This document shows positions 12,213 through 46,148 of a stretch of DNA of 64,000 bases, one piece after another; position 1 is the stretch's first letter, and each line of letters begins with the position of its first letter. Both the position numbers and the translations under genes were made by a program. The DNA is from Gammaproteobacteria bacterium (GTDB lineage: Bacteria; Pseudomonadota; Gammaproteobacteria; Ga0077554; Ga007554), in NCBI GenBank assembly GCA_016191235.1, contig JACPOZ010000030.1, forward strand, positions 3,924 to 67,923. The letters are read 5' to 3'. The notes below the pieces were generated by a model. That model searched no databases. It was not told the DNA's origin and worked only from the letters and a program-made list of their open reading frames with translations.

Positions 12213-12929
12213 TCAATAAGCCCAGTCCTCGTGTCTAACCGGCAGCCTATTCAGCTCATCCTTGTAGAACCGCCATTTCGGCATGAACTGATCCATCAAG
12301 GTTATGAAGCGCGCGTTATGCGTGCGCTCCAGCAAGTGAACCATCTCATGCACGACAATGTATTCGAGGCATTCGAGAGGCTTCTTTGTCAGTTCAGTAT
12401 TGAGGCGGATGCTTTTGGAGATTTTGCTACAGCTGCCCCACTTGGTTTTCATCCTTTGCACGAAGAATCTCTCCACCTTCACGCCCATGAGCGGTTCCCA
12501 TTTCGCGACCAACGGTAAGACTGCTTCTTTGAGCTTCTCTCGATACCAAGCATCCAGGACCTCTTGTTTCCGTTCATCACTGGTTTTCGGGCGAAGCTGA
12601 AGGATCATCCTGTTATGCTTTAGCTCGACTACTGGAGCCGCGTCCTTCTCGAGCACTTTGAGCAGGTAGCGCTTTCCCCAAACGTAATGGCTTTCGCGGT
12701 CGAGGTATTCGCGAGGTGTTTCCCGCTGCTGTTCACGCAACTTCTTTTGCTGGCTTTTGATCCAGCTGAGTTTGGTGATGGCAAAAATGCGAATAGTATC
12801 CAGGTCCATCCGCAATGGTGCGGAAATTCGCACCTTACCAGCCGGTGGATAGACGCTCAGGTGGATGTTCTTGATGTCCTTCTTCACCACGTCCACGGTA
12901 ATCTCACCCAGATTGATCTGCGTGACCAT
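12213..12929 (-). CDS. M48/DUF45 (YgjP-like) zinc metallopeptidase coupled to hsdR
   Basis: 238 aa with HEMVH (HExxH) in IVVHEMVHLLERTHNARF. Its start codon overlaps the hsdR stop by 1 nt. This family is recurrently encoded next to type I R subunits. Confidence 0.7.
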   Translation of the reverse strand: MVTQINLGEITVDVVKKDIKNIHLSVYPPAGKVRISAPLRMDLDTIRIFAITKLSWIKSQQKKLREQQRETPREYLDRESHYVWGKRYLLKVLEKDAAPVVELKHNRMILQLRPKTSDERKQEVLDAWYREKLKEAVLPLVAKWEPLMGVKVERFFVQRMKTKWGSCSKISKSIRLNTELTKKPLECLEYIVVHEMVHLLERTHNARFITLMDQFMPKWRFYKDELNRLPVRHEDWAY

Positions 12930-15900: not shown

Positions 15901-16051
15901 TTGTCAGCCACGCACTGAGCAGACTTTCCTCGACGTTGCTGTTGCCATCGCGGTCGGTCCAGTCGCCGAGGTAGCGATAACTTAGCTCATCGCGGAAAAG
16001 TGCGATGACTCGGTTCTGCGTCTCGCGTTCGGGTTGGCCGACATAATTCAT
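12929..16051 (-). CDS. hsdR: type I restriction enzyme R subunit (HsdR)
   Basis: 1040 aa with an N-terminal endonuclease region, SF2 helicase motifs (TGSGKS-like WHTQGSGKS, DEAH-like VFVDECHR) and a C-terminal helical domain. Confidence 0.9.
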   Translation of the reverse strand: MNYVGQPERETQNRVIALFRDELSYRYLGDWTDRDGNSNVEESLLSAWLTKSGYTPAQISVALHKLRTEADNHNRTLYGNNHSVYNLLRYGVPVKVEVGKVTESVRLINWNEPEKNDFAIAEEVTLKGNFERRPDLVLYVNGIAIGVLELKNSRASIGDGIRQSLSNQLPEFNEWFFSTVQFIFAGNDSEGLQYGTIGTQEKYFLKWKEDEQDNSRFKLDKYLLKLCEKKRLIELMHDFVLFDSGVKKLPRVHQYFGIKAAQEHVRQRKGGIIWHTQGSGKSIVMVLLAKWILENNPNARVAIITDRDELDKQIERVFTEAGEAIKRTGSGRELMSQLGQARPRLLCSLVHKFGRRDVDDFDAFIRELEAQPSQTMGEVFVFVDECHRTQGGKLHRVMKAMMPNAVFIGFTGTPLLKKDKQTSLEVFGGYIHTYKFSEGVEDGVVLDLVYEARDIDQHLGSQAKIDAWFEAKTKALNDWQKAELKNQWGTLQHVLSSKSRMDRVVADIVFDFSVKPRLSSERGNAILVASSIYEACKYFTLFQKTPFKGRCAVVTSYNPLARDVTLEETGANTETGKQFIYNTYNELLKDVDARPGMNKTEIYEERAKDLFTKEPANMKLLVVVDKLLTGFDAPPCTYLYIDKSMQDHGLFQAICRVNRLDGEDKDFGYIVDYKDLFKKVENAIAVYTSELDHSAGGPDPEVLLQDRLTKGKERLDNALETLALLCEPVAPPKGELEHIHYFCGNTEIASDLKEREPQRSALYKAAVALVRAYANIADELDKAGYSPADITRIKRQLDHYLNVREIIRKASGETLDLKAYEADMRHLIDTYIEADEPRKISPFDDMPLLELIVKTGIANAINSLPNGFKGNKDAVAETIENNVRSKIIKEHLNDPAYYEKMSALLDEIIAARKAKAIEYEDYLKRIAELAKKVDAGQAEDTPEQMNTPGRRALYNNLKQGAASGSVSCVAEPSASYGDTAKDDVLNLVVRIEEAVKRTRPDGWRGVQAKENVIKTALYEVLKDMAEVERIFLIIKQQKEY

Positions 16052-16099
16052 GCTGTGGTTTTCTTTTTCATCTGGGCCAGGCCTTCACTCATTCCTCGG

Positions 16100-17260
16100 T
16101 CAGTTGTCCGCCCTATTCAGCGCTGAGGGGATAAATCCCTCATCTGACAGGGCGCGAACCACGCCACGTATCAGGTAGTTATTGCTGAAACCGATGGTGT
16201 ACTGGCGCGCCCCTTCATTGATGGGTTGCAACATTTTTCGTTCCACCAATTTTTTGATTTGATAAGTACGCTGGGCGGGCGACATCCCCGGCATGGCAGC
16301 GGCCAGATCGGCCGCCTTGGCCACGCCACTTTTGGCAGCGATGTGCAACACGGACTCTTCCATCGCCGTGATGAGCTCTCGTTCTTTGGCATATGAAAGT
16401 GCAGGGGCAAGAATTTTGTCGCCCAAGTAGCCAAAGTCAGTGAGCCGATCTACTTTGCGCAATGCGTCCAGGATGCCTCGCAATACATATATGCACCATG
16501 CCTCCATCCCATCTGCGGCGCCGGAGTCGGCGCGCGCCAACATGGCGTAATACTGATCGCGGTTATTGCAGAACACGGCTGTTGGATTCAACACCCTGCC
16601 GCCGGTCTTCACATTGAAGCCGTACTTGATCAACAGGGCGTAGGTCAGCAGCCGCACCACGCGGCCATTGCCGTTGCCAAACGGGTGTATCCAGCCAAAA
16701 CGGTGGTGCGCCAGCGCCACCTTGATGAGGTCATATTTTGGGGGATGCTTTTCGTTGATGAACGCCACCAGCTCCTGCATGTAGTGCGGCACCTGGATGA
16801 ATTCGGGCGGCAAGTGTTCCGCCTGCGCAATCTTTACGGACTTCTGCCGGTAAGCCCCCGGCGTGGCGTCCCCCTCGCGTTCCAGCCCTTTTACCGTGAT
16901 GGCGTGCAGCTCGCGGATGAAGTGCTCAGTTAGCCCGTCGCCGGGCTGAATGCGCTCCTCGATGTAGGCCATGGCGGCTTCGATATTTTCCATTTCACGA
17001 AGCTGGTCAGAGGACGCGGGGGCGCCCTCCAGCTTGCTTTCCACATAGTCGGCCAATGTGGTGTGATTCCCCTCGATACGGGCCGATCCCAGGCTTTCCA
17101 GCATGTGAAAGATACCCTTGAGCTGAAAAAAGACCGGCGCCGGGGTGGTGCCGTGCAATTGCAGGCGGCGCAGGTGTTCCAGCTCCGTCAAAACGTCCAC
17201 CAGCGGGGAGTCAAACGACGGATTGAGCAAGGTCAGATCATGATGGCTAAATACAGGCAT
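16100..17260 (-). CDS. Fic/DOC family protein
   Basis: 386 aa carrying the Fic motif region [12 protein letters not shown] (HxFx[D/E]GNGRxxR with Asn in place of Asp/Glu) and a C-terminal winged-helix-like tail. Located between hsdS and hsdR. Confidence 0.8.
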
Positions 17261-17325
17261 GGCGATATTTATCTGTAATGGCGGAGACGGATTATCTTTA
17301 ATTTACACAGAGTTTATTCTTGAAA

Positions 17326-17379
17326 TCAACAAATTGCACCATAAAAATTGAAATGCTATCTTGAAATCACTCGGAGGGC
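17326..17379. promoter_or_regulatory. AT-rich putative promoter/operator region upstream of fic, with a direct repeat CTTGAAATCA(A/C)
   Basis: Two copies of TCTTGAAATCA about 40 bp apart in the hsdS-fic intergenic region. A GAGGGC...GCCCTC hairpin (17381-17403) follows. Confidence 0.3.
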
Positions 17380-17447
17380 ATATTGACTGGCCCTCGTTGA
17401 TGAAGTCGAAATGCATGGCTGTCTGCTAGACAGGAAGACCGCCATGC

Positions 17448-18701
17448 TCACACCAGCCGTATCCTCCCGGTGAGCAGCTCCTGCATCATGCCCTGCTTGA
17501 GGCTGCGGGCCTTGGCGAGCTTGGCTTCCAGTGCGGCGAGTTCGGCGTCCATGTCGGAAAGGAGGGTGGCGATGGCGGTTTGTTCGGCTTTCGCAGGTAG
17601 CGTCACTTCAAAAGCAGCGAGCTGTGTCTTACCGATTTCAAGGAACGTGCTGCCACCGCACAGACTGATAAATCCCTGTTTTTTCATAAGTAGCAGGTAG
17701 TAGAGAAACTCCACATCCACATGATCGAACGGAATGAAGTTCTTGAAGCCCTGATTCGTGGAAACTGAGACGGTATTGATCGCGCACTCACCAATGGTGG
17801 CTCGTGAGGTCATCACAATCGAGTTGGCCGGGATCATCTCGGCTGAACTGCTTTTCAGACCCAGTGACGAAATCTTGCGGCTAGTGTCGCTGATGTATTT
17901 GAAGCCGTTCAGCCCGGTAATATCGGTGGGCGTACACCAGGGAATGTCCCCATCCCAAAACTGCGGTTGTATCGTGCTTGGCGTTCCGCCGCTGCGAATG
18001 TTTGCCAACTCCCCCAACCGCTTCACCTCCCACTCCCCGCTGAAGCCCGGCAGGCGCTTCTTGCCGGTGAGCAGTTGCTGCATGGCGCCTTGTTTGAGGT
18101 GGCGTTTTTTGGCGATGAGTTGTGCCAGGGATTCGATGAGAGCATCCGCATCGCTCAACGCCTCGGCGATGGCTTCTTGTTCGGCTTTGGTGGGTGGGAG
18201 GACGAGGAATAGTCGTTTTAAGTTGTCTTGATTTATGTTCGTGTTGGCACTTACAGAACTTGCGCCAATCACCCGTCTCCTAAAGCCTTCCTCATAAAAG
18301 CAGTGTCTCTTAAAGCCGCGACTCAGAGTTCCACCATCTCGAAATCTGATCAAGAACCCTGAATACACGGTCTTTGGAAGATCTTCTTCGATGACCGCCG
18401 TTAGACCAACCCCGGAGGGTTTGACGGAGGACCTGATGAAAATCACATCACCTTTTCGGAGATCATATGTTTGTTGCTCTGCATGGTTTGTGTCCACAAG
18501 GCCGAGAGAATCGCTAGATGCAATGCTGGAAACGCCAAAAACATCCATGAGATTCACAAATGGTGAGCCATGGCCAAACGCTTCACTCCCCTTGTTGATA
18601 CCGTTCTTAAATTTGCCCACCTCACAAAGTTGGAAGATATTCCAATCCTCCGGAATCACCCCCACCTCGGTCTGCTTGTAGCCGGTCGGCATGTTATTCA
18701 T
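17448..18701 (-). CDS. hsdS: type I restriction-modification specificity subunit (HsdS), two target-recognition domains
   Basis: 417 aa. The conserved central spacer (LLTGKKRLPGFSGEWEVKRLGE) and C-terminal repeat (QGMMQELLTGRIRLV) flank two variable TRDs. Confidence 0.85.
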   Translation of the reverse strand: MNNMPTGYKQTEVGVIPEDWNIFQLCEVGKFKNGINKGSEAFGHGSPFVNLMDVFGVSSIASSDSLGLVDTNHAEQQTYDLRKGDVIFIRSSVKPSGVGLTAVIEEDLPKTVYSGFLIRFRDGGTLSRGFKRHCFYEEGFRRRVIGASSVSANTNINQDNLKRLFLVLPPTKAEQEAIAEALSDADALIESLAQLIAKKRHLKQGAMQQLLTGKKRLPGFSGEWEVKRLGELANIRSGGTPSTIQPQFWDGDIPWCTPTDITGLNGFKYISDTSRKISSLGLKSSSAEMIPANSIVMTSRATIGECAINTVSVSTNQGFKNFIPFDHVDVEFLYYLLLMKKQGFISLCGGSTFLEIGKTQLAAFEVTLPAKAEQTAIATLLSDMDAELAALEAKLAKARSLKQGMMQELLTGRIRLV

Positions 18702-19317
18702 CGTAGCCTCCCCGGTACGTCATGTTCCGTAGGGGCGACCGGCCGGTCGCCCCTACCCCGGTCGCCGGTACGTTATCCGGGTGCAATGTGTCCTCCGCCC
18801 AACGGCGTGGATTGTCGGCAACGTATTCGGCGATGCGGCGGTAATCGGCGGCGTCGCGGATGATGTGTTCGTAATAATTGCGTTGCCATACCGGCGCACC
18901 GGGGGATTGGCGGATTGCATTGATGCGTTTGGTGACAGCGGATTTGTAACCGGCCATCAATGCGCCGAGGGATTTCGATTGGGGGCCGGTGGGGGCGACT
19001 GGTGGGGCGACCCGCCGGTCGCCCGTACGGCCGGGCACGTCATTAGTAATGAGGACGATGGCGTGAAAATGATTAGGCATGATCACGTATTCGCCGAGTT
19101 CGATTTCTGCCCGGATTTCTGCTGACCGAAGCCATTCATCCGTCACAATCTGCCCGAATTCATTGGACTGCATCTCACCGTTCACGATTCCGCCGAACAG
19201 GCATTCGCGATCACAGGCGCAGATTGTCACGAAATAGCCGCCAGCCTGGGAGTAGTCATAATCTTTCAGACGGATCGAGCGGCGGTGGTGAATATCCCGG
19301 TTATAACGATTCATCAT
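18694..19317 (-). CDS. Y1 HuH transposase-like protein (IS200/RAYT-like, TnpA_REP family), translationally coupled between hsdM and hsdS
   Basis: 207 aa with N-terminal HRRSIRLKDYDYSQAGGYFVTICACDRECLFG, HuH motif MPNHFHAIVLI and a Tyr region VWQRNYYEHIIRD. It overlaps the hsdM stop by 4 nt and the hsdS start by 8 nt. Two GC-rich palindromes lie inside the CDS (18732-18753 and 19004-19025). Confidence 0.7.
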   Translation of the reverse strand: MMNRYNRDIHHRRSIRLKDYDYSQAGGYFVTICACDRECLFGGIVNGEMQSNEFGQIVTDEWLRSAEIRAEIELGEYVIMPNHFHAIVLITNDVPGRTGDRRVAPPVAPTGPQSKSLGALMAGYKSAVTKRINAIRQSPGAPVWQRNYYEHIIRDAADYRRIAEYVADNPRRWAEDTLHPDNVPATGVGATGRSPLRNMTYRGGYDE

Positions 19318-22233
19318 GCGAAACCCGTCTTCTTCAGGTGTTCGGCAGCCTTGCCCATTCCAAGCTCCAGCGCCTTCTGGGCATACCAGAGCCTGGTTTC
19401 CGGGTCGCTGAGTTTATCCAACAGGGTGAGATTGCTGCGCCAAGGCAATTGTGCAACGGTGCGTTGCACAATTGCCCGATCCGGCCAGGCATCTGCGAAT
19501 GTCCGCATGTACTTGAGGTTTCGCGGCGAGAATCCGGTCGTGCCGGGGAATGCGGTTTTCAAGTCATGGGAAATTACCTTCGCCCCCCACCCCTCCTGAT
19601 ACTGGCGTTCCAGAATGGATCGGCCGATGTCCCAATACATGAGTACCATGGCGGCATTGGCCGACAATACGGTTTTGATGCGCTCATGGGCTATGCGCTC
19701 TTTTATGTCGACTAAGAGTGTAGCGTAACCTTCAGGCATTGCGGCCAGGGTGTCGGGAACAGACATCAGCACGTCCGGTTTTGCCGTGCCACGGTTCTTG
19801 CGTCTGTCTGTCGGCTTGGCGACTTGATTCACCATCTGCGGCAGAGGGGTTTCGTAGCGTTCGGCCAACTCCTTCACGCGCTGGGTGAGCGCCTGGCTGA
19901 TGCGGTCCATCTCGCCGTGGATGGCGGCGGCGATGGCGGCCAGCCATTTATCTTCCACCACCAGCGTCTTGATCTCCGCCTCGGTGAGCGTGGGGTATTT
20001 GGCATAGGCCAGTGCGTCGAGCTTGGCCTCGGCGTCTTTCAGGGTTTTCTTGAGTTCAGCGTCCTGCGTGCTTAATTTCAGCCAAGCATTGAGGGCATGG
20101 GCCTCTTTCTTAGCCGCCTTGTCGCCTTTAATTTCTTTCAGGCGGGCGCTGACGTTGGCCTTGTTCACCTTGTCCAGCTCGGCAAACGCACCTTCTTCAC
20201 CGCCGTGTTCCTCTTCCAGTTCGGTCATCTGGGCGGCCACGCTTTCCAGCGCGGCCGCCTGCTGCGCGGTGAAGTAGCGATCCACGATGAGCGGTTTAGG
20301 TATAAGGTCGCAAGCCCAGCCTTTGTCCACTTCTTTGACTGTTTTGCCTTCCTTGTTTTTCTTGACTTCAATAACCCGGTAAGTCGTCGCCTTCCAGCCA
20401 TCTGAAGCGATCAGGTAACAATCGTCCTGCATGGTGGCAGCCCAATAGTCCATCAGGTGTTGATAGACGTCGTATTTATCAATCAGCGGCTGCGCCGTGT
20501 AGTGGGCGAGCAGGTCTTCAGCGAGCTCGTGGATGATATTTTTGGGGTGGCAACCTGCCTGCAAAGCCTTGAGCGTTTCACAACTGCGCTGTTGCCAGTC
20601 GGCAAACAGGGCATTCATGCTCTCGATGAAGCTGACGAACTCTGGATGCTGGTAGATGGTGGGCTTGATGGCTTGCTTGGAGACGGCCAGATCAAGGTAG
20701 CCGGGGCGCTTATCGGAAAGGTCGCGTAGCGAGACCGCGTCCCTCTCACCCGCTTGCGGAAGAGAGTTAGGAGAGAGGGGAACAGCTTTAAACAATGTCT
20801 TCCGAAGTCGTGGGCAAACATCCCAATACGGCTGCAAGGCATCCACGTCGGCTTTGGGGATGCCACCCTTCAGGTGCCCCTCGATGTCCTGAATATCTTC
20901 GACTTGCTGGCTGTCGATGTAGCGCGGGAGGTTGAGGTTGAATTCGTTCTTCTCGATCTCCTCGACGCTGACCATGCGCGAGTATTTGGGAATTTCCAGC
21001 CGCTTGTTGAAGGCATCGACGATCTGGTGAATGTCCATGTCGCGCAGGCGGTTCTTGGGGCCGTCCTTCATGTAGCCGCCGCTGGCGTCGATCATGAAGA
21101 TGCCCTTGCAGGTGTGGGCGTTTTCTTTGTCGATGACGATGATGCAGGCGGGAATGCCGGTGCCGTAGAACAGGTTGGCGGGCAGGCCGATAATGCCCTT
21201 GATGTAGCCTTTGCGGATGAGGTTCTTGCGGATGTCGGCCTCGGCATTGCCACGAAACAGAACGCCGTGCGGCAGAATGCAGGCGCCTTTGCCCGTGCTT
21301 TTCAGCGAGCGCACGATGTGCAGCAGGTAGGCGTAATCGCCTTGCTTGGCAGGTGGTGTGCCAAAATGTTGGAAGCGCTCGTGCGGATCGTTGAGCGGGT
21401 CGATGCCCGTGCTCCAGCGCTTGTCGCTGAAGGGCGGATTGGCAACGACGTAGTCGAAGGTTTTGAGCTGGCCATCCTCGCTTGTAAACAGCGGATTAGC
21501 CAGCGTATTGCCCTGCTTGATCAGCGCCGTTGGGTTGTTGTGCAGGATCATGTTCATGCGCGCCAGGCCAGAGGTGGCGGCGTCTTTCTCCTGCCCGTAA
21601 AGCGTGACCTTGGCTCTGGCTTCATCGCCCACTTTCAGCAGCAGCGAACCGGAACCGCAGGTCGGGTCATAAACAGTGGTATTGTTGCTGGTATGGGCAT
21701 CGTGAATGCCGATGATCTGCGCCATGATGCGGCTGACCTCGGCGGGTGTGTAGAACTGGCCCTTGCTCTTGCCACTCTCGGTAGCGAAGTGGCGCATCAG
21801 GTATTCATAAGCATCGTCCAGAATGTCATCGCCCTCCGCGCGGTTCTTTGAAAAGTCGAGCGCCTTGTTTTCAAAGATGGCGATCAGGTTGGTGAGCCGC
21901 TCTACAATTTCCGAGCCGCTGCCCAGCTTGCTGGGATCATTGAAGTCCGGCATGTCGGACAGCTTGTTGGCATTAGCCAGCGGCGCGATGATTTTCTTGT
22001 TGATCTGGTCACCGATGTCGGGCTTACCCTTTGAGCGCGACCATGTCCTTGAAGCTGGCACCTTCCGGGATGGTGATCGGTGCGAAAGGTACACCGGCGT
22101 ATTTGTCGCTGACGTACTTGATGAACAGCATGACCAGGACGTAGTCCTTGTATTGGCTGGCGTCCATGCCGCCGCGCAGCTCATCGCAACTGGACCAGAG
22201 GGAGAAATAGAGTTCGGATTTTTTCAGGGCCAT
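19314..22233 (-). CDS. hsdM: type I restriction-modification methyltransferase (HsdM) with an apparent +1 frameshift near 22028 (possible pseudogene or sequencing error)
   Basis: The N-terminal 69 aa (MALKKSELYFSLWSSCDELRGGMDASQYKDYVLVMLFIKYVSDKY...KDMVALKG) are in the frame 22024..22233. The rest of the N6-adenine methyltransferase (NPPF motif VVANPPFSDKRW, SAM-binding DPTCGSGSLL) continues in the 19314..22184 frame. The junction is at a GGG run (minus strand). Confidence 0.8.
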
Positions 22234-34546: not shown

Positions 34547-35326
<780 letters not shown>

Positions 35327-35441
35327 TCAAAAGCCGCGTCCTGCCTGGGGCCGCTGGTATTGATTTCGCTGGGTTTCTCAAGAAAGGAATAGGGGTATCA
35401 CCCCCTTTTTACTTTTTTATTCGCGGGCTGAGGAGTAATAA

Positions 35442-36671
35442 ATGGCAGTCATCGAAGGATTTCGGGTGCAGAACTATCGCGCACTGCGCGATGTGACGCT
35501 GGGCAAGCTCTCCAACCAGCAAGCTGGGAAACCATTGACGCCTTTCACCGTGGTGATTGGCAAGAACGGCGTAGGCAAGAGCACCTTGTTCGATGCATTC
35601 GGATTCGTGGCGGACTGTTTGTCCGCCGATGTAGAAAGCGCCTGCGACATGAAGCAACGCGGTGGCTTCGATCGCCTTCGCTCGATGGGCGTGAATGAGC
35701 CCATCCGGTTTGAAATCTATTACCGCGAAGGGCCCAATGAACGGCCGATCACCTACGAGTTGGCGATTGCGCTAGATTCCTCGGGGCGGCCCTTTGTCGA
35801 ATCCGAGGTGCTCAAGCAGCGTCGTAAGGGCGAGAAGCGTGGTCGGCCTTATGCGTTCCTGCGCCTGGACCACGGCAAGGGAACGGTCTGGGCAGGTGAA
35901 GAAGCCCTAGAAGCCGAAGGTGGAGAGGATCGTGCCCAGACGCCAGTAGAACTGACCGATACCCGGCAACTCGGCATCGCCACCTTGGGTACGCTCAAGG
36001 AACATCCGCGCATCAAGCTGTTTCGAGACTTCCTCAAAGGCTGGTATCTGTCCTACTTCTACCCGGATGCGGCGCGTAGTCTGCCGAGCGCCGGCCCACA
36101 GCGGCATTTGAACATCCACGGCGACAACATTGGCAACGTGGTGCAGTTCATGGAGCGTGAGCACAAAGCGCGATTCAAGGCCATCCTCGAACGCATTGCG
36201 GCGAAGATTCCGGGGATTGCCAGTATCGACACGCAGGTGACTGAGGACAAGCGCGTGTTACTGCGTTTCAACGACGGCGCTTTTGGTGACCCATTCTTCG
36301 CCCAGCAGATGTCAGATGGCACGCTAAAAGTTTTTGCTTACCTGCTGTTGTTGGAAGACCCGGACCCACCACCGTTCATTTGCATCGAAGAGCCAGAGAA
36401 CGGCCTTTATCACAAGCTGTTGGAGGCGTTGGCCCAGGAGTTCCGTTTACATGCCACCGGCAAAAAGAATGCCCCGCAGATTTTCGTGACCACGCACCAG
36501 CCGTACTTTGTTGATGCGCTGGCGCCCGAGGAAGTGTGGATACTGGAGAAAGGAACGGATGGCTATTCCACTGTGCGTCGCGTCTCTGAGCTTGAAGACG
36601 TGAAAAACCTCGTGGCTGAAGGTTTGCCTTTGGGTGGTCTTTGGTACAGCGATTATCTCGATGAGAGATGA
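35442..36671 (+). CDS. ABC-type AAA ATPase (AAA_21/AAA_15-like, OLD/PARIS AriA-like) without a nuclease domain
   Basis: Walker A VVIGKNGVGKST, Q/signature-like QMSDGTLKVF, Walker B/D-loop FICIEEPENGLY and H-loop VTTHQP. GAGGAG RBS upstream. 4-nt overlap with the next gene. Confidence 0.8.
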   Translation: MAVIEGFRVQNYRALRDVTLGKLSNQQAGKPLTPFTVVIGKNGVGKSTLFDAFGFVADCLSADVESACDMKQRGGFDRLRSMGVNEPIRFEIYYREGPNERPITYELAIALDSSGRPFVESEVLKQRRKGEKRGRPYAFLRLDHGKGTVWAGEEALEAEGGEDRAQTPVELTDTRQLGIATLGTLKEHPRIKLFRDFLKGWYLSYFYPDAARSLPSAGPQRHLNIHGDNIGNVVQFMEREHKARFKAILERIAAKIPGIASIDTQVTEDKRVLLRFNDGAFGDPFFAQQMSDGTLKVFAYLLLLEDPDPPPFICIEEPENGLYHKLLEALAQEFRLHATGKKNAPQIFVTTHQPYFVDALAPEEVWILEKGTDGYSTVRRVSELEDVKNLVAEGLPLGGLWYSDYLDER

Positions 36672-37327
36672 GTATGCACATTGAGATATTGGTGGAGGAC
36701 AGTTCGGGGGAGAAGTTGCTGCAAGTATTGCTGCCTCAGTTTCTGGGGCTACAAGGCGAGCCACATACCTGGCGTTTACATGCCTACAAGGGCATCGGCC
36801 GAATTCCACCTGGCTTGGTGACGAAGGCCGATCCCTCGAAGCGGATTTTGCTTGACCAGCTGCCAAAGCTATTACGTGGTTATGGCAATACGCCCGGAAT
36901 AGATGCCGTTGTGGTCGTGCTCGATACTGACAAACGCGACTGCGCTGCATTTTTGGCCGAGCTGAAAGCGGCCGCCGATGTCTGCAATCCGGTGCCTAAC
37001 ACTCTGTTCAGACTCGCTATCGAGGAAATGGAAGCCTGGTATTTCGGCGACCAAGATGCTTTGTTGGCCGCCTATCCACGAGCCAAGCGGGATGTGCTCG
37101 GAAAGTATGTTCAGGACAGCGCATGTGATACATGGGAACTCCTCGCCGACGCAGTGCATTCGGGCGGGTCGGCAGCGATCAAGAAAGCTGGCTGGCCATT
37201 GCCGGGACAGGTGAAGCATGAATGGGCCGAAAAGATTGGTCCGTTGATGGACCCGAACCGGAATATCTCTCCGAGTTTTGGAAAGCTGAGGGATGGATTG
37301 CGCTGGCTCGTCGCAGAGGCGACTTAA
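36668..37327 (+). CDS. DUF4276-like protein with Toprim-like signature (candidate nuclease partner of the upstream ATPase)
   Basis: 219 aa. N-terminal HIEILVEDSSGE (conserved Glu) and VVVVLDTDKRD (DxD) resemble a Toprim catalytic core. The DUF4276 family assignment is from memory. Confidence 0.6.
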   Translation: MSMHIEILVEDSSGEKLLQVLLPQFLGLQGEPHTWRLHAYKGIGRIPPGLVTKADPSKRILLDQLPKLLRGYGNTPGIDAVVVVLDTDKRDCAAFLAELKAAADVCNPVPNTLFRLAIEEMEAWYFGDQDALLAAYPRAKRDVLGKYVQDSACDTWELLADAVHSGGSAAIKKAGWPLPGQVKHEWAEKIGPLMDPNRNISPSFGKLRDGLRWLVAEAT

Positions 37328-37391
37328 TGCGGGCAATCGGAATCCTTTAATGCTTTAATGAGAGAAAAAAGCGAAGAAAGGACTCCACCCC

Positions 37392-37423
37392 TTAACCCTC
37401 CCTCGACTTAACCCTCCCTCGAC
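37392..37423. repeat. perfect tandem duplication of a 16-bp unit
   Basis: TTAACCCTCCCTCGAC occurs twice in tandem, between the DUF4276 gene and the convergent S8 protease gene. Confidence 0.6.
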
Positions 37424-37537: not shown

Positions 37538-40069
37538 CTACTCGCTTCCACCTGCATAGTAGCGGATGGATTCGGAGTGTAGCCCCTGCGCCGTGAGCAC
37601 CAGCCGTGGCAGGTCGAGGCCGCATCCCGGGCGGAGGATGAGCTTGCCTCGGCCAACGCCGGCCCTCTGCACAGTGAATGTCTGCTGAACGTCCGGCACG
37701 ATGGCGAGGGAGAAAACCCCGTCCCTGTTGGTCATGGCCGATGCCTCCCGAGGTTGGAAAGCGGCTTTTCCAGGCGCGGCCAGCTTGGTGGATAGGCGTG
37801 CTCCGGCGACAGGGCGGCCATTGGCATCGACCACCTCGCCGAAGACGCGGCAGGGCCGTGGCACGTAGGTACGCACCGTGACGCCGCCGATCAGCCGCCG
37901 TTCTCCGTCTTTGGGCGTGGCATACACCGCCACGTTGCAATTCGCCTGGCGGCCGGGACGGGTGCCGACGGGGGCGTTGAAGGTAACCTTGATGTTCCGC
38001 GCGCAATCGGTGAACGGGTCCAGCGCGAAAGCGGCATCGCTGACCGTACAGCGCCAGCCGGGGTGGTCGGAAACCGCCTTGATCTCGAATCGCGCGGGCG
38101 TCATAAGCGAATTTTCGACACGGACATTGTATACCGATGGGCTGATCATGATATTGCGTTGCGTGACATTGTTGGTGTAATCCGCGTCGAGTCCATACGC
38201 GATCGAGATCTGGACACATTGATGGTCTGAAGATGCCGGCGTCCACGCCATGTTCTCGGTAACGGTATCGTGGGGATTGATGGTGATCTTTTTTGTGCCG
38301 AGAGGGTGGAATTGATTATTCCCGGCGGCAAAATTGTACACGCCGAAATTCACCAGGATCGTGACGGGGGTGTTGCCGGGATTTTCTATCTTGACGTTGA
38401 TCTGATTGGGGACGCCGGCCTTGGCCGGCGTGTTCGTCGTTATGTCGACCTGATTATTCCACGCCGGATCGTTGCTCTTGAGCGGGCAGGGCTGGCCCGC
38501 GGCGCCGCCACTCTGGCAGTTGGGAAAGCGCACATCGGTGGATTGCGCCATCGCACCTTGCAGCGCCGCGCCGACGTTCAACAAACCCCAGCCCAGCGCC
38601 GTGTCCCAATTGCCCGTCGTGGATGAATATGGAGTATTGCGCGAATTGTCGGCGAACATGATCAGCAACTGTTTCAGGCTGTCGGGCGACATGGCGGGGA
38701 ATTTCTGCAACACCAGGGCCGCGGCGCCCGATGTCATCGCCGCGGCGGGAGATGTTCCGGGAATTCCCATGAGCGTGGTGGTGCTCAGATTCTGTCCCGG
38801 CGCGGAGAGGTCGGGTTTCAGCGCCAGCAGGTTCGGCGACACGAAGCTGAAGTCCTTGCGCGGACCAATGAGATAGTTGCTCCAATGCGTGTCGTCGCTG
38901 CGTGTCACCGTGTTCTTGTCATCCGTGGCATTGACGCTGATGGCGAACGAGGCCGAGGCAGGCGGCTTGGTGATCCTGGCGCCTGGCGAAGACGCCGGGC
39001 ATGACGCCGTACCGTTATTGGCATTGGCGTAGGAGGCCACCACCACCAACCCCAGCGCCGAAAGATAATTGGCCTGCTGCGACAATGCGTCCGTGCCGTC
39101 ATCATCGACGCAGCGCGAGAAAGACAGGTTGACGACGCGAATCTTGAATTTCTGGGCATTGATGCCAACCCAGTCCACCGCCTTGGCGGTAAATGTCGAG
39201 TCGCAATTGTATTGACCGGAAGAAGTGGTCCCGCAACGGTTCACATCAATAAGACCTGCGGCTGGCGCAATCCCGGCACAATTGGCCGCGGGGCCGCCGC
39301 CGGGATTTCTGCACGTCTGGCCGGCAACACCTCGCCCCAGCGCCATCACGGCCATGGTGGTGCCATGATTGCCGACGTTGTCCGTTGGATTTCTTGATCC
39401 GTCTCCCGAATCAGTGCTGTCCCAGGCATCGTATCCGGCAACGAATGCCGAAGATGGGAGTGTATTCAAGGTGCCATCATTGACACCTGTATCGACGATG
39501 GCGATATTGATCCCGCTTCCGTTCAGGCCCATGTCCTGCGCCGACTGGTTCGGGTATTGGGCGCTGGCATGCGCTTGAATGGCGCGGGAGGCAACGTCCA
39601 GCTCCAGGGTTTCCGGTATCTGCCATTCGACCATCGCCACCTCGGGCCGCGCGGCAAGTGCCGGCAAGTCGGCAATTGGAACATCGTTGAGGAAGACGAA
39701 ACTGACCAGCTTGCCTACATAGGCTATCTTTCCGTATCTGGAAAAGATTTCCTGCACCTGCGCCGGAGGAATGCAACGGTTTAGTGCGAGAATGATATTC
39801 GTGCGATCTTTGGGGCCAAAGCGCGCCTCGATCTCGTCATCGATGAAGTTGCGGTTCTGGTCGCGAACCCAGGATAGATGCTTGCGCTGCCCGATCAGGG
39901 TGGGATTCGAGTGCGACGTCACAACTTTTTGCCAGGAAAGCGGCGTATATGCTGTTGCGTACAACGGCCCACACGTAAAAATAAACAGGAATGACGAGAA
40001 AGCGATAACGAACTTCCTTGTGAGTTGCTCTGTCTTCCCTGACACGTAAAAACCCAGCTGGATTTTCAT
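37538..40069 (-). CDS. secreted subtilisin-like serine protease (peptidase S8) with N-terminal propeptide and C-terminal accessory domains
   Basis: 843 aa with a signal peptide, catalytic triad motifs IAIVDTGV (Asp), HGTTMA (His) and GTSPAAAMTSGAAAL (Ser), and a C-terminal beta-sandwich region. Confidence 0.85.
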   Translation of the reverse strand: MKIQLGFYVSGKTEQLTRKFVIAFSSFLFIFTCGPLYATAYTPLSWQKVVTSHSNPTLIGQRKHLSWVRDQNRNFIDDEIEARFGPKDRTNIILALNRCIPPAQVQEIFSRYGKIAYVGKLVSFVFLNDVPIADLPALAARPEVAMVEWQIPETLELDVASRAIQAHASAQYPNQSAQDMGLNGSGINIAIVDTGVNDGTLNTLPSSAFVAGYDAWDSTDSGDGSRNPTDNVGNHGTTMAVMALGRGVAGQTCRNPGGGPAANCAGIAPAAGLIDVNRCGTTSSGQYNCDSTFTAKAVDWVGINAQKFKIRVVNLSFSRCVDDDGTDALSQQANYLSALGLVVVASYANANNGTASCPASSPGARITKPPASASFAISVNATDDKNTVTRSDDTHWSNYLIGPRKDFSFVSPNLLALKPDLSAPGQNLSTTTLMGIPGTSPAAAMTSGAAALVLQKFPAMSPDSLKQLLIMFADNSRNTPYSSTTGNWDTALGWGLLNVGAALQGAMAQSTDVRFPNCQSGGAAGQPCPLKSNDPAWNNQVDITTNTPAKAGVPNQINVKIENPGNTPVTILVNFGVYNFAAGNNQFHPLGTKKITINPHDTVTENMAWTPASSDHQCVQISIAYGLDADYTNNVTQRNIMISPSVYNVRVENSLMTPARFEIKAVSDHPGWRCTVSDAAFALDPFTDCARNIKVTFNAPVGTRPGRQANCNVAVYATPKDGERRLIGGVTVRTYVPRPCRVFGEVVDANGRPVAGARLSTKLAAPGKAAFQPREASAMTNRDGVFSLAIVPDVQQTFTVQRAGVGRGKLILRPGCGLDLPRLVLTAQGLHSESIRYYAGGSE

Positions 40070-40328
40070 GGTTCATCTCCCTGTAAGGGCAAAGAATTTG
40101 TTGTGTAGCTGCCACGACAAAATCATTGAACCACATCATGATCCAGGCATCTTTGACGCAGATCAAAAATACTCCGAATTAATATAAGACTTCCGCAAGA
40201 GCATGGCATCCTGGAAACCGGTAATGCATCCGACCTTGATATAGATCAAGGAAATATTCTGGCGAGCGTCTACTATCGTTTATCAGGCGGTAGTGGTGGG
40301 ACGTGTGATGCAGGGTACGGAGGCAGCC

Positions 40329-43300
40329 ATGATTAAGGTCACGGTAAGTTCCCGATTTTTCATCGGGAGTAAAAAGAAAAATATACTGGCGTTGTTGCTT
40401 CTCGCGATCAGCGCCCTGTGTTTTCCGATACTGGTGCCTGCGGCCCCTCCCAACGTCAACATTACCAATCATGCGGCGTGGCAAAATGAGCCGATGGTCG
40501 CGGTCAATCCCCAGGATCACGACAGGCTCGTGGTGGGATATAACGACAATCGCACTGGCAATGTGGCGGTCGGCTGGTCGTGGTCCGACAATGGCGGCGC
40601 CGTCTGGACTCACGGCGGCACCATTGCGCTGGCGGGTTATACGCGAAGCGCCGATCCCGTGGTGGCCTTCGACAGCGCGGGTACTGCCTACCTCGCCGGC
40701 CTGGCCTTCAATCCCGACAACACGCCGGGCAGCCTGGGCAGGGATGGCAGCATTTTCCTGGCCAAATCCAATGACGGCGGCCATACCTTCACCGTCTTCC
40801 AGAACATCGTCGCCGCCGGACAAGGCACGGCAAACCACCTCGACAAACCCTGGCTGTTCGTTAATCCCGCCAATAATCATGTGTATCTGGCCTGGACGCA
40901 GCGTGCCAACGCGTGGGGCGTGGGCGGGGCTGAGTCGATGACGATATGGTTCACGCGCTCTATCGATGGCGGCGTCACTTTCTCCCCGCCGCTTCAGGTC
41001 AGCACCTTCAATCCCCCAACCGGCGCTTCGCGCTCGTTTGGGCCGCAAATCGCAATCGGAGCGAACGATCGCATCTATGTTGCATGGCATACCCTGGAGA
41101 ATGGCAATCCGGGCGATGCAAATTGGGTCGCTCCCAGGCTGTGGATCGCCGAATCCATCGATGGTGGCGTGAGCTTCGGCGCCAACCAGCAGGTTGCCAG
41201 CCAGCTGTTCGGCAAGCCAAATAAATTCATCAGCATGGGCGCGGACCCGGCCAGTGGCAGGATTTACATTGCCTACGCCGACAGGCCCGCTTGGCCGGGC
41301 GATTATGACATCTATGTGGCAAGCGCCGCCGCGGCTGCCGGACCGTGGGCGGTAACGCGCATCAGCGATGACCCGGTGGGCAGCGGCAGGGCACAGTTCT
41401 GGCCAAGCCTGGACGTAGCACCTAACGGTCGGGTGGATGTAATCTGGTATGACAACCGGGACGATGCCGTGACTAACAAATTGAGCGTCTATTACACTGC
41501 CTCGATCGATGGCGGAATGACGTGGGCCGTCAATACCCGCATCACGGATGTCGTGCCAGGTTTCACGCCGACGCAGGATTTCGCGGGCGACTACCACTCC
41601 GTCGCCTCCGTCAACGATAAGGCTTACGCCGTGTGGATGGATAACCGGCTGGGCAATCAGGAAATCTTTGGCACCAACATCTCGCAGGAGGCGGTGGACG
41701 CCATGCTGGTGCTGGATATCTCTGGCAGCATGCTGTCGCCGGGTTGTCCCAATTGCGCGCCCAAGCTCGACGCGCTGAAGGATGCAGTGGAGATCTTCGT
41801 GCAGTTATGGAACAGCCTGGCCGTGGCCGAGCCGCAGCACCGGCTGGGGGTGACCTATTTCAGAACCAACGTGAACGAATTCAATATCGGTGGCGAGGCC
41901 CTGTTGCCAATCGGACCTGGTAACAACAACGCCCAGGCTATCATTGCCGATGTCGACAGCCAGACGACTGTTCCCATGAATCTGACGGCAATGGGAGGCG
42001 GACTGCAATCCGCCATCAACCGTCTCACCGGCATGAGTCCACGCCGCATCATCCTGTTCACCGACGGTATGCAGAACGTCAATCCAATGGCGCTGCCGCA
42101 GGGCGCTGCGCTGAAAATCGACACCGATCCCGCCACTTCTAACACCTCCAATATCAGTCCCACCACACCACCCACCGTGCTGGACCAGCAGTTGGGGCGC
42201 AGGATCAACACCATCGGCGTGGGCGCCACGCCGCAATTCGTGACGCTGCTGCAGAGCATCGCCAATAACACGGGCGGGAGAAGTTACACGACCATGGCGC
42301 CCGATGCTAACCTGCGCCGCTTCTTCGTGGAGCAACTGGTGGATGCCCTGCGCGGCGCCAGCCCGCAATTGATCGACTACCGTGTTCACAATCTGACCGC
42401 CGACCGGGTTTTCGAAGTCTTCAGCGTCGATCGTTCGGCGAAAAAAATCATTTTCAAGCTGAGCTGGAAGCGTGGCGAACCACCACTGGCGATTGAGCAG
42501 ATCGAAAAAGACGGCGTCAACCTCATCGCCCATGCCAGGCTGACCAGCGGCGACTTCTACCGCATCTATGCCTTTGATCTGCCGCTCGCGGTGCAGAATG
42601 CACGGATCGGGCCTGAGGGAGACTGGCGCCTGCAAATCTATGGCATCAAGGGCGCGCGCTACGAAGTTGCGGCGCTCGCTGACGAGAAAAGGCTCGATTA
42701 CGCCTTTGAGATTCACAAGGGGCTGAGCAAGGTGGGAGAGCCGCTCCGATTGACGGCTCGCCTCGCTGTGGACGGCAGGCCGCTGTCCGATGCCAATCTG
42801 GTGGCCGCCCAGGTCTTCAAGCCCGGAACCAGCGTTGGAACGGCCCTTTCGATAACACCTACTCCTGCATGGATCAGCGCTGCGGCGCCAGTCGCGGCCG
42901 GCCATCAATCCGAGCCGGGAACGAGTCCTGCCCAGCAGAAACTGCAAACTTTGCTGCAACAGGAGGGGTTCTGGAAACGTGTTCAACCCGCCGACGGAGC
43001 GCTGGTGCTGGCCAGCCAGGGGAATGGCATTTATACCGCAATCTATGACGATACCAGCATCCCCGGCGCCTATACCGTGGTGTTTCGCGTCAGCGGCACG
43101 GATGAGGATATCGGCGCGTATACCCGCACCGAAACACGTGTGGCGACGGTGCAGTTCGGCAAGGCGAATCTGGATGCCTCAGATATGCGCGTGGTGAGCA
43201 AGGACGTGATGGGTTATGCCACCCTCATCAAGATCCAACTCCGCCCCCGTGACGCACGCGGCAATTATCTTGGGCCTGACTATGGGCAGCGGATCAAAGT

Positions 43301-43889
43301 ATCCACCGCGACGGGAAACATCGAGCCGGGTTTCCGTGATCTGCTGGACGGACGATATGAGTATGCTCTAACTGTGCCCACCGGCTCCGACCCCGAGATT
43401 CGCGTGGCGGTGATGGATGAGCCCCTCTACGCCGGACCGCTCTCGCGAGTGAGCGAGGGCGCTTCCTATCGCTTTGCCCTCAGCGCCCACCTGGGCTGGG
43501 GTGTGCCTTTGGGCAACTTCAACAATCAATACGATGCGGGAATGCTGGGCGAGCTGGATTTCGAGTATCGGCCTTCGCCACGCTATTCGCTCAACGCCGT
43601 GCTTGGCCGCTACCGCTTCGACCCTGATTTCGACATCACGGGTGGTACACTTTACCTGCGGGGCTATCAACCGCTCACGCCACAGATGGAAGGGTATGTC
43701 GAGGCAGGTTTGGGCGCCTATCGCCCCGAGTCCTTGAGCAGGAGGGGCGGGATAAGTCTCGGTGCCGGCGTGAGCCACGCCCTGGCTCCAAGGCTTCGCG
43801 GTGAGCTCGGCGCCGATTATTTCCATCTGTTTGGCGGAGGTGATATTGATTTCATCGGTGTTAAGGCGGGCCTGCGTTGGTTGTTTTGA
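40329..43889 (+). CDS. large exported BNR/Asp-box repeat + von Willebrand factor A + C-terminal outer-membrane beta-barrel protein
   Basis: GGAGG RBS and ATG at 40329 (the ORF track starts earlier at 40293). Signal peptide ILALLLLAISALCFPILVPA. Five SxDxGxTW-type Asp-boxes (SWSDNGGAVW, SNDGGHTF, SIDGGVTF, SIDGGVSF, SIDGGMTW). VWA MIDAS motif LVLDISGSM. The C-terminus has alternating hydrophobic beta-strand periodicity and ends in AGLRWLF (OMP-type terminal Phe). Confidence 0.7.
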   Translation: MIKVTVSSRFFIGSKKKNILALLLLAISALCFPILVPAAPPNVNITNHAAWQNEPMVAVNPQDHDRLVVGYNDNRTGNVAVGWSWSDNGGAVWTHGGTIALAGYTRSADPVVAFDSAGTAYLAGLAFNPDNTPGSLGRDGSIFLAKSNDGGHTFTVFQNIVAAGQGTANHLDKPWLFVNPANNHVYLAWTQRANAWGVGGAESMTIWFTRSIDGGVTFSPPLQVSTFNPPTGASRSFGPQIAIGANDRIYVAWHTLENGNPGDANWVAPRLWIAESIDGGVSFGANQQVASQLFGKPNKFISMGADPASGRIYIAYADRPAWPGDYDIYVASAAAAAGPWAVTRISDDPVGSGRAQFWPSLDVAPNGRVDVIWYDNRDDAVTNKLSVYYTASIDGGMTWAVNTRITDVVPGFTPTQDFAGDYHSVASVNDKAYAVWMDNRLGNQEIFGTNISQEAVDAMLVLDISGSMLSPGCPNCAPKLDALKDAVEIFVQLWNSLAVAEPQHRLGVTYFRTNVNEFNIGGEALLPIGPGNNNAQAIIADVDSQTTVPMNLTAMGGGLQSAINRLTGMSPRRIILFTDGMQNVNPMALPQGAALKIDTDPATSNTSNISPTTPPTVLDQQLGRRINTIGVGATPQFVTLLQSIANNTGGRSYTTMAPDANLRRFFVEQLVDALRGASPQLIDYRVHNLTADRVFEVFSVDRSAKKIIFKLSWKRGEPPLAIEQIEKDGVNLIAHARLTSGDFYRIYAFDLPLAVQNARIGPEGDWRLQIYGIKGARYEVAALADEKRLDYAFEIHKGLSKVGEPLRLTARLAVDGRPLSDANLVAAQVFKPGTSVGTALSITPTPAWISAAAPVAAGHQSEPGTSPAQQKLQTLLQQEGFWKRVQPADGALVLASQGNGIYTAIYDDTSIPGAYTVVFRVSGTDEDIGAYTRTETRVATVQFGKANLDASDMRVVSKDVMGYATLIKIQLRPRDARGNYLGPDYGQRIKVSTATGNIEPGFRDLLDGRYEYALTVPTGSDPEIRVAVMDEPLYAGPLSRVSEGASYRFALSAHLGWGVPLGNFNNQYDAGMLGELDFEYRPSPRYSLNAVLGRYRFDPDFDITGGTLYLRGYQPLTPQMEGYVEAGLGAYRPESLSRRGGISLGAGVSHALAPRLRGELGADYFHLFGGGDIDFIGVKAGLRWLF

Positions 43890-44681: not shown

Positions 44682-44932
44682 GGGCGAATTTCAAACTCAC
44701 CTCGTCAAGAAGCGATGGAATGTTTGGAGATTATCACTACACTCGATGTGGATGCCATCGTCAATGCCGCCAACCCAGCAAAAGAAGCAGCAAAAAGCAG
44801 CAAAAGGGTCGCAGCCCTTTAATCTGAACGGCGGTGTGCGCTCTACCCCGAATGCTTCATACATTCGGGGTAGTTTCGCCTAATGAACAGCCTGGTCACA
44901 TGAGGCTAATGATAGAAAAAAGTAAAAAAAGG

Positions 44933-46148
44933 CTCTGACCCGAATGGCACTTACTTAAGCTTCGTAGGGTGTCCATTTTTCCGAATGTTCTCCCTGGCGA
45001 CAGGTCGTGGCTTGGTGAGCAAAGGATAGGGTTTCGGTCGTCGCTTGATGGCGCGAGGTTCAATGCGCCCCAGGCGGTTCCCGACGCGCTGTTGGGCGAT
45101 CAGGGCAAACAGGTCTGCGAGGGTGTCTGCGTTACCGGCGCCCATTCCTCTTTGGTTCCACGCCAACCAGAGCTGAAGGGTGTGCTTGAAACTAAATTCG
45201 CGCGGTAGCCTATCGGTCAACAAAGCGGACTGAGCCATCAGGAGCCGAATCAGGTTATAGGCCAACAGATGCACCCAGATTTCCTTCTCAGCCATCGCTG
45301 GGGTTTTGCAACTCAGCATTTCCATGCCCAGCGTGGTTTTGATGTGGCGCAGATCCAGTTCTATGTGCCATCGGCTTCGATAGAGTATTTTCAGGGCCGC
45401 TTTGGGTGTTTGGTTCGGGTTCAATAGCGTCGTTACCAGGACCTTGCCGCCGGTATACAGCTCCCGTACCGTCAGCGTGTCCGGGGCGTGATCGTAGTCC
45501 GATTGCGCCATCCAGCCGGGCTTGGTCTGCGGCTTGGCGATCGTGATCAGATGATCACGTGATCCCAACCGCCGGCCACGCCGAAAGTCGGTGCGGCGCT
45601 TGCGTGCCCCCAGTTGTTCGAACACCGCATCCACACCGCGTGATTGCAAGTCGGACAGCAGAAAATAGGTCGCGTAATAGGCATCCCCCAGCAGGATGTC
45701 TCCGGCATTCAGAGTGTCGAGCACCGACCGCAGCAAAGATTGTTCATCGCCGCCCTTGCCTTGGTAGCGACCGATCGCCGCGTTGAGTACCGCACCGCTG
45801 CCGAGGCACACGATGCCTACCATGCGGCACAGCGGGAAACCCGCCCCCGGCTTTTGGCTGCGCGATCGACAACGTCTCCGTGGGCGGAAACAGCCTCTCC
45901 AGGTGATCGAGCCATTCGGCGCTGGTGAGAAGGTTGAAGAACGCGTAGGAATCGGTGTTGGCGGCGTGATGCCGAATACGGCGCTGTTGATGTGCGCGAG
46001 CGCTGGGAGTACGATGCATAAAGACTGGCTCCTTGTGATATCGGTGGTAGTTTGGCAACACCAACCTTATCACTTAAGCCAGCCTTTTTGTATATTAAAA
46101 TCAATGTGTTATTCGTTAAGTAAGCGCCATTCGGGTCAGACCCCTTTA
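44933..46148. mobile_element. degenerate IS4-family insertion sequence (internally deleted), about 26-bp terminal inverted repeats
   Basis: Inverted repeats GCTCTGACCCGAATGGCACTTACTTAA (44933-44959) and TTAAGTAAGCGCCATTCGGGTCAGACC (46122-46148). A transposase reading frame is disrupted inside. Confidence 0.7.
44951..46073 (-). pseudogene. IS4-family DDE transposase, internal deletion/frameshift
   Basis: The N-terminal 70 aa (MHRTPSARAHQQRRIRHHAANTDSYAFFNLLTSAEWLDHLERLFPPTETLS) are in one frame. The C-terminal 290 aa (GFPLCRMVGIV...LLGDAYY...YRSRWHIELDLRHIKTTLGMEML) are in another. About 100 codons between them appear to be missing. Confidence 0.7.

Follow-up and report, generated by a model that had tools for sequence, protein, structure and literature searches.

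The gene pair downstream of hisF

The stretch of DNA considered here, called the window below, comprises 64,000 nucleotides (nt) from contig JACPOZ010000030.1 (positions 3,924 to 67,923) of a Gammaproteobacteria bacterium, and in it the histidine biosynthesis gene hisF (34547..35326, plus strand, assigned by homology to relatives) is followed by two genes of a candidate anti-phage module. The first open reading frame (ORF; 35442..36671, plus strand) begins with ATG 115 nt 3' of hisF on the identical strand and encodes 409 amino acids (aa); the second (36668..37327, plus strand) also begins with ATG and encodes 219 aa. A first-pass annotation, made from the letters of the DNA alone, had placed two genes with a 4-nt overlap directly after hisF, and the ORF list gives exactly these coordinates, the shared nucleotides being ATGA. 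The two proteins are identified by their profiles as the components of HEC-01, a system already catalogued in PADLOC. The ATPase matches the HEC-01A profile PDLC04182 with an expect value (E) of 6.5e-193, residues 1-408 aligning with profile positions 1-402 of 406, and its partner matches the HEC-01B profile PDLC04205 (E 1.2e-93, residues 3-212 against profile positions 1-210 of 213). PADLOC defines the system by an HEC-01A gene and an adjacent HEC-01B gene on the same strand, and the pair, having both, is by these profiles an intact copy.

The 409-aa protein is, as judged from motifs and profiles, an ATP-binding cassette (ABC) type ATPase without a fused effector, as had been proposed. It matches Pfam AAA_21 (PF13304) over residues 35-358 (E 2.6e-41, 143.1 bits versus a cutoff of 27), and its N-terminus also matches Pfam AAA_15. 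A script located Walker A GKNGVGKST at residue 40 (with Lys46), a signature-like QMSDGTL at residue 289, Walker B/D-loop ICIEEPENGLY at residue 313 and H-loop TTHQP at residue 350, so that the profile and the Walker A, signature-like, Walker B and H-loop motifs together place the protein among the AAA_21 ABC ATPases. Weaker PADLOC matches are to AriA (4e-35), AbiLi (8.9e-27) and mad3 (4.1e-22). The NCBIfam search returned only a sub-threshold match to MAD3 (NF047739, 96.6 bits versus an equivalog cutoff of 420), and the sole PDB sequence match is a marginal one to the OLD nuclease 6p74 (E 1e-3).

The 219-aa protein is, on its structure model, a small Toprim-fold, nuclease-like protein. It belongs to Pfam DUF4276 (PF14103; 35.7 bits versus a gathering threshold of 30.2, residues 9-211, profile positions 1-191 of 192), and the expectation that Pfam would return AAA_21/AAA_15 for the first protein and DUF4276 or DUF4435/Toprim for the second was thus borne out. 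Sequence profile searches of PDB and of NCBIfam with the second protein gave no match, and its exact sequence was not found in a public gene index. Its model is confident (predicted local distance difference test score, pLDDT, 96.7), has the three-layer alpha/beta fold with a four-stranded parallel sheet that characterizes Toprim domains, and finds its best solved-structure matches in the Toprim regions of OLD nucleases. The protein carries HIEILVEDSSGE at residue 4, containing Glu10, and VVVVLDTDKRD at residue 81, containing Asp86 and Asp88. Glu10 immediately follows strand 4-9 and Asp86-Thr-Asp88 is placed where strand 80-86 ends; among 70 diverse relatives, 90% or more keep Glu10 and each of the two Asp residues. 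These residues occupy canonical Toprim positions and form a putative metal site; Glu120, Glu122, Trp124, Asp128 and Lys183 are also conserved. The Toprim core of a Glu plus DxD that the first-pass annotation had proposed therefore agrees with the model, its structural matches and residue conservation. All quoted motifs of both proteins were located by script, which is far beyond chance.

Relationship to known ATPase-Toprim systems

HEC-01 ("Hma-embedded candidate 01") was described by Payne et al. as a pairing of ABC ATPase and TOPRIM-domain protein that is embedded in Hma systems, the TOPRIM domain of HEC-01B sharing its metal site with BpOLD (bioRxiv 10.1101/2024.01.29.577857). DUF4276 and RloB have been placed in the Toprim superfamily, and MAD4 is a DUF4276 homologue (PMC12065111). 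Both the system and the Toprim assignment of DUF4276 are thus previously published, and the Toprim reading, which had been singled out as a point of interest, is correct but not new. Likewise the suggestion that an AAA_21 plus DUF4276 pair had been catalogued as a defence cassette is right for HEC-01 and wrong for the name then suggested, PD-T4-4: the partner in PD-T4-4 is a PD-(D/E)xK nuclease (PF11645), and the second protein has no PD-T4-4 profile match. The window pair resembles PADLOC HEC-01 in its architecture, an ABC ATPase and then a small TOPRIM-like protein, both matching over the full length of the profiles, and in having close copies that are embedded in multi-gene defence operons. 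Unlike HEC-01 as described, the window copy is solitary, beside a histidine operon and not in an Hma system.

A number of related systems join an ABC ATPase to a Toprim protein, and the paper on PARIS added AbiL and MADS3-4 to this group (PMC11464382). Membership in PARIS is rejected at the profile level, as DUF4276 is the sole Pfam match of the second protein at E<=1 and its PADLOC matches are confined to HEC-01 profiles. It is not a DUF4435 protein, has no AriB profile match at E<=1 and is 219 aa long versus 305 aa for the AriB chain; the HEC-01A profile by far outscores AriA for the ATPase. Unlike class 2 OLD proteins (BpOLD, XccOLD), TsOLD and Gabija GajA, the pair has its ATPase and Toprim parts in two genes and not in one chain, and the second protein is only 14-15% identical in sequence to the Toprim regions of OLD-family nucleases and GajA. 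With two separate ORFs and no adjacent UvrD-type gene the pair belongs neither to OLD classes 1-2 nor with GajA, and no GajB/UvrD partner occurs in the window. MADS is similar in that MAD4 is the reported DUF4276 homologue noted above and MAD3 a reported AAA15/21 ABC ATPase, to which the first protein is weakly matched. However, MADS is rejected on the MAD3 score given above and on the neighbours, which are hisF and a subtilase gene; no MADS methyltransferase or other MADS gene adjoins the pair.

The two-gene arrangement of an AAA/ABC ATPase and a small Toprim-like protein is shared with RloA/RloB, AbiLi/AbiLii (the AbiLi match of the ATPase is among those listed above) and AAA(D29)-TOPRIM_OLD. 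RloB-type genes occur in Type I restriction-modification (R-M) operons. The ATPase neutralises a toxic Toprim protein, and AAA plus TOPRIM_OLD pairs were found by Ernits et al. to act as toxin and neutraliser (PMC10440598). Unlike RloB (PF13707) and Toprim_Old proteins, the second protein has neither of these Pfam matches at E<=1; RloB membership is rejected at this level, and the profiles place the protein in a different Toprim subfamily.

A promoter-less mobile unit

The window pair is 71-92% identical in DNA to copies on more than 80 unrelated contigs, and comparison of these copies shows a unit of ~1.9 kb with sharp edges. Homology among the copies begins at 35428-35442 and finishes at ~37240-37334, with no flanking homology at any of the more than 80 loci compared. 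The left edge, defined by DNA alignment of the copies, is the Shine-Dalgarno sequence with its spacer, GAGGAGTAATAA (35430..35441, plus strand), just 5' of the ATPase start; GGAGGAnAAATAnATG, the Shine-Dalgarno itself, is conserved across the aligned copies and the sequence 5' of it is not. The right edge of the conserved part is the stop codon. No promoter or repeat is common to the aligned copies, and a search for integron-like or transposon-like borders found neither repeats nor conserved flanks in common. Both genes are found at every locus with enough room, and the two genes thus pair obligatorily. The unit has spread horizontally without a promoter, from ribosome-binding site to stop codon.

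There are 4365 homologues of the second protein, the best 120 of which are 77-93% identical and come from Burkholderiales, Desulfobacter, Chlorobium, Accumulibacter and Ozemobacteraceae, among others; at 50% identity HEC-01 as a whole falls into 911 clusters. The pair stands out from the rest of the window in composition, with a tetranucleotide correlation (r) of 0.68-0.78 versus 0.89-0.96 between host segments, and with a GC content at third codon positions of 0.61-0.67 versus mostly 0.70-0.77 in the his genes (hisH 0.62). Both genes are under purifying selection, the ratio of nonsynonymous to synonymous substitution rates (dN/dS) against copies elsewhere being 0.03-0.09 for the ATPase gene and 0.09-0.15 for the DUF4276 gene. 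The ATPase retains 91-92% protein identity with three copies (L006, L105, L162) despite saturated synonymous sites (dS 1.1-1.8, dN/dS ~0.03), and its Toprim partner is much less constrained, with 75-83% identity.

The histidine operon and transcription of the pair

The genes upstream of the pair are murA and hisG, assigned by Pfam, and hisD, C, B, H, A and F, assigned by homology to relatives. The first-pass annotation had seen the pair in the slot where betaproteobacterial operons continue with hisI and hisE. The lineage instead looks gammaproteobacterial, the closest HisF proteins in species-representative genomes (only 82% identical) being those of Thiohalomonadaceae, Chromatiaceae and Ectothiorhodospiraceae, all Gammaproteobacteria. 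The relatives that share the mla-murA-hisGDCBHAF synteny do carry hisI/hisE 20-40 nt 3' of hisF and without an insert, as had been anticipated. However, no hisI/hisE is found in the window by the same probe that finds both in the nearest relatives, nor are the genes that follow hisIE in relatives (L008-L013, L043) found in the window, including the 28.7 kb after hisF. A clean 1.9-kb insertion between hisF and hisI is thereby ruled out; the his operon ends at hisF, and the position is a synteny, or rearrangement, breakpoint. Since the genes that follow hisIE in relatives are missing from the window, the placement of the pair in an "operon slot" looks incidental, and solitary HEC-01 copies beside assorted housekeeping genes are common. 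The left and right flanks of the pair match in tetranucleotide composition (r 0.91-0.96), which makes it unlikely that the assembly is a chimera with its join in the conserved cassette.

No sigma-70-like promoter is found between hisF and the ATPase ATG. A scan for terminator-like sites located a hairpin, GGGGT-ATC-ACCCC followed by a T-run (35391..35421, plus strand), which lies outside the conserved unit and bears on transcription of the pair. It is weak, with a stem of 5-6 bp, and the 115-nt spacer between hisF and the ATPase gene folds no better than its shuffles (z 0.44); the flanks of the pair match no Rfam family and show no unusual structure. As the hairpin is weak and the spacer not unusually structured, read-through is plausible, and the pair is probably transcribed from the his operon.

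Copies embedded in restriction-type operons

At two other loci (L001/L002) a pair of 409 and 217 aa is flanked by the N6_N4 methylase and the SNF2 helicase of a BREX-like system, whose further members include BrxC and PglZ; at L006/L007 hsdS and hsdR of a Type I R-M operon flank the pair; and at L004/L005 it is solitary amid housekeeping genes. A census of immediate neighbours at the sampled loci covered 48 downstream and 33 upstream genes. The downstream neighbours include a ResIII-type helicase in 9 of 48 cases (8 of the 9 also match SNF2), the Wadjet protein JetD in four and a UvrD-type helicase in two; upstream, an N6_N4 methylase accounts for 11 of 33, and MmeI-like, HsdS and SbcC/JetC-like proteins for one each. 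The remaining neighbours are assorted housekeeping genes. The gene directly 3' of the pair at the four JetD loci, all from metagenomes, has JetD_C and DUF3322 domains; from these four and the single locus with an SbcC/JetC-like gene upstream it follows that the cassette also occurs inside Wadjet operons. Overall, restriction-type operons (BREX-like, Type I R-M or Wadjet) house about one third of the sampled copies, while the remainder stand alone as the window copy does.

Where the pair is embedded, the host-system gene that follows it (for an SNF2 helicase or HsdR) begins 34-109 nt before the DUF4276 stop. This overlap of the next gene with the DUF4276 end is seen at L001 (10545/10620-10654) and L006 (10620-10654), and also at L096 and L100, and it suggests translational coupling of the cassette to the host operon.

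The wider window

On the 3' side the pair is followed by a convergent secreted subtilase gene, a BNR/VWA protein gene, lipoprotein genes, an insertion sequence (IS) and then core genes such as hrpB, none of them related to defence. A perfect 16-nt tandem duplication, two copies of CTTAACCCTCCCTCGA at 37391-37422, lies 64 nt 3' of the DUF4276 stop; it is unique within the window and absent from the flanks of the other copies. The subtilase (S8 family with CarboxypepD_reg, 843 aa, minus strand) and the 1198-aa BNR/VWA protein (plus strand) form a divergent pair at 37538-43889 that is native in composition (tetranucleotide r 0.93-0.94 to the left flank) and not syntenic with relatives. The IS element of ~1.2 kb (44927-46147), 7.6 kb away from the HEC-01 pair, is bounded by 32-nt terminal inverted repeats that are 91% complementary. 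Its transposase ORF (44951-45823) matches DDE_Tnp_1 over profile positions 42-200 of 200 only, possibly because of a truncation or frameshift. A defence island around the pair is rejected, as the neighbours within ~10 kb are all non-defence genes.

A complete Type I R-M operon lies on the minus strand at 12213-22184, 13-22 kb from the pair. In the order of transcription it comprises hsdM (19314-22184), an N6_Mtase with a C-terminal DUF1016_N/YhcG-like extension; a 207-aa ORF between hsdM and hsdS (18694-19317); hsdS (17448-18701); a Fic/DOC gene between hsdS and hsdR (16100-17260); hsdR (12929-16051); and a YgjP-like metallopeptidase gene (12213-12929). The slot between hsdS and hsdR thus holds Fic in the window operon and the HEC-01 pair in L006.

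Proposed function and alternatives

HEC-01 is likely a split OLD-like system, in which the ATPase would restrain the Toprim nuclease until an infection cue appears and the nuclease would then cut DNA or RNA. The model follows by analogy PARIS, OLD/Gabija and the AAA/TOPRIM toxin-antitoxin pairs. HEC-01A would be made in translational coupling with HEC-01B, the predicted metal-dependent Toprim-fold nuclease, and an oligomer of the ATPase would hold the nuclease in an inactive complex. On ATP-dependent sensing of an infection-associated trigger the nuclease would be freed or activated; it would cleave nucleic acid (DNA or tRNA) and so halt the replication of the phage, with a probable cost to the host cell, and the window copy may act in the same way. 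Established are the family of each protein, the Toprim fold with its conserved acidic residues, the obligatory pairing, the purifying selection, the spread of the unit and the frequent presence of close copies in restriction-type operons; the complex, the sensor and effector roles, the substrate and the activity of the window copy are inferred.

Several observations weigh against this account of a split OLD-like system. For an immune sensor the ATPase shows unusual conservation, its protein identity staying at 91% or more even at dS above 1. In contrast to PARIS, the cassette is all but missing from plasmids (2 weak matches among 72,556 records), and a search of phages found none. The pair does not lie in a defence island, its neighbours being his genes, the subtilase, the BNR/VWA protein, lipoproteins and the IS, and the promoter search described above was negative and the weak terminator-like hairpin precedes the pair. 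The record of protection against phages is mixed. A representative HEC-01 in R-M-deleted E. coli K-12 gave no protection against any phage tried (bioRxiv 10.1101/2024.01.29.577857), and a 2026 study reports protection of E. coli B by a single cold-seep HEC-01 against one or more of the phages T4, T5 and T7 (PMC12881386); this positive report concerns another representative and comes without a fold-change for HEC-01 (PMC12881386).

It is rather unlikely that HEC-01 is instead not a stand-alone defence but a guard of R-M, BREX or Wadjet systems, comparable to PrrC or PARIS, its nuclease firing when phage anti-restriction proteins disable them and the window copy acting in trans with the R-M operon at 12213-22184. 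Close copies do occur at fixed junctions, between hsdS and hsdR, between methylase and helicase and, at four loci, before JetD, and the prrC gene of EcoprrI occupies the position between hsdS and hsdR as well. The anti-restriction protein Ocr triggers PARIS, the window does include a complete Type I R-M operon, and dependence on a partner or on a particular trigger would account for the lack of protection in R-M-deleted E. coli. However, about two thirds of the sampled copies have no restriction-type neighbour, and the window R-M operon is 13 kb off on the other strand, is only 28-31% identical to the L006 operon that hosts a pair and has its junction slot filled by Fic; moreover one HEC-01 reportedly protected E. 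coli B alone (PMC12881386). A purely selfish role is very unlikely: the pair would then be a toxin-antitoxin-like addiction module, with a Toprim toxin and an ATPase neutraliser, maintained by post-segregational killing and horizontal transfer and conferring no immunity. AAA/TOPRIM_OLD pairs do score as toxin-antitoxin in neutralisation assays (PMC10440598), the cassette is compact and found across phyla in arbitrary contexts, and its discoverers saw no phage phenotype (bioRxiv 10.1101/2024.01.29.577857). Yet such modules are typically enriched on plasmids and mobile elements, where this cassette is almost absent, and its embedding in defence operons and the reported anti-phage effect (PMC12881386) favour immunity; toxin-antitoxin and immune roles are in any case not mutually exclusive. 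That the window copy is a silent passenger, landed at a rearrangement junction after hisF, unexpressed and decaying, is extremely improbable. The negative promoter search, the upstream hairpin, the synteny breakpoint and the IS 7.6 kb away would fit such a fate, but both ORFs are full length and free of frameshifts with every catalytic motif intact, dN/dS versus the nearest copies is 0.07-0.13, and the weak hairpin and ordinary spacer leave read-through from the his operon plausible.

In annotation terms, two genes that would be called "hypothetical" and "AAA family" become a defined HEC-01 ATPase-Toprim module. HEC-01 is widespread and its phage data conflict; the remaining interest lies in its mechanism, its conserved ATPase and its embedding at operon junctions. 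One bolder idea, which seems improbable at present, is that HEC-01 is a universal "plug-in" guard of restriction-type immunity whose near-invariant ATPase senses a conserved signal of restriction failure. If true, the ATPase would respond not to a rapidly evolving phage protein but to, for example, a DNA-mimic anti-restriction protein or stalled translocase complexes. Such a role would account for the presence of the one promoter-less cassette in Type I R-M, BREX-like and Wadjet operons of different phyla and for its failure in a test host deleted for R-M, and it would explain how solitary copies could act in trans, as with the Type I R-M system of the window. The sharp edges of the unit, the extreme conservation of the ATPase and the recurrence at fixed R-M, BREX-like and Wadjet junctions offer handles on the HEC-01 trigger.

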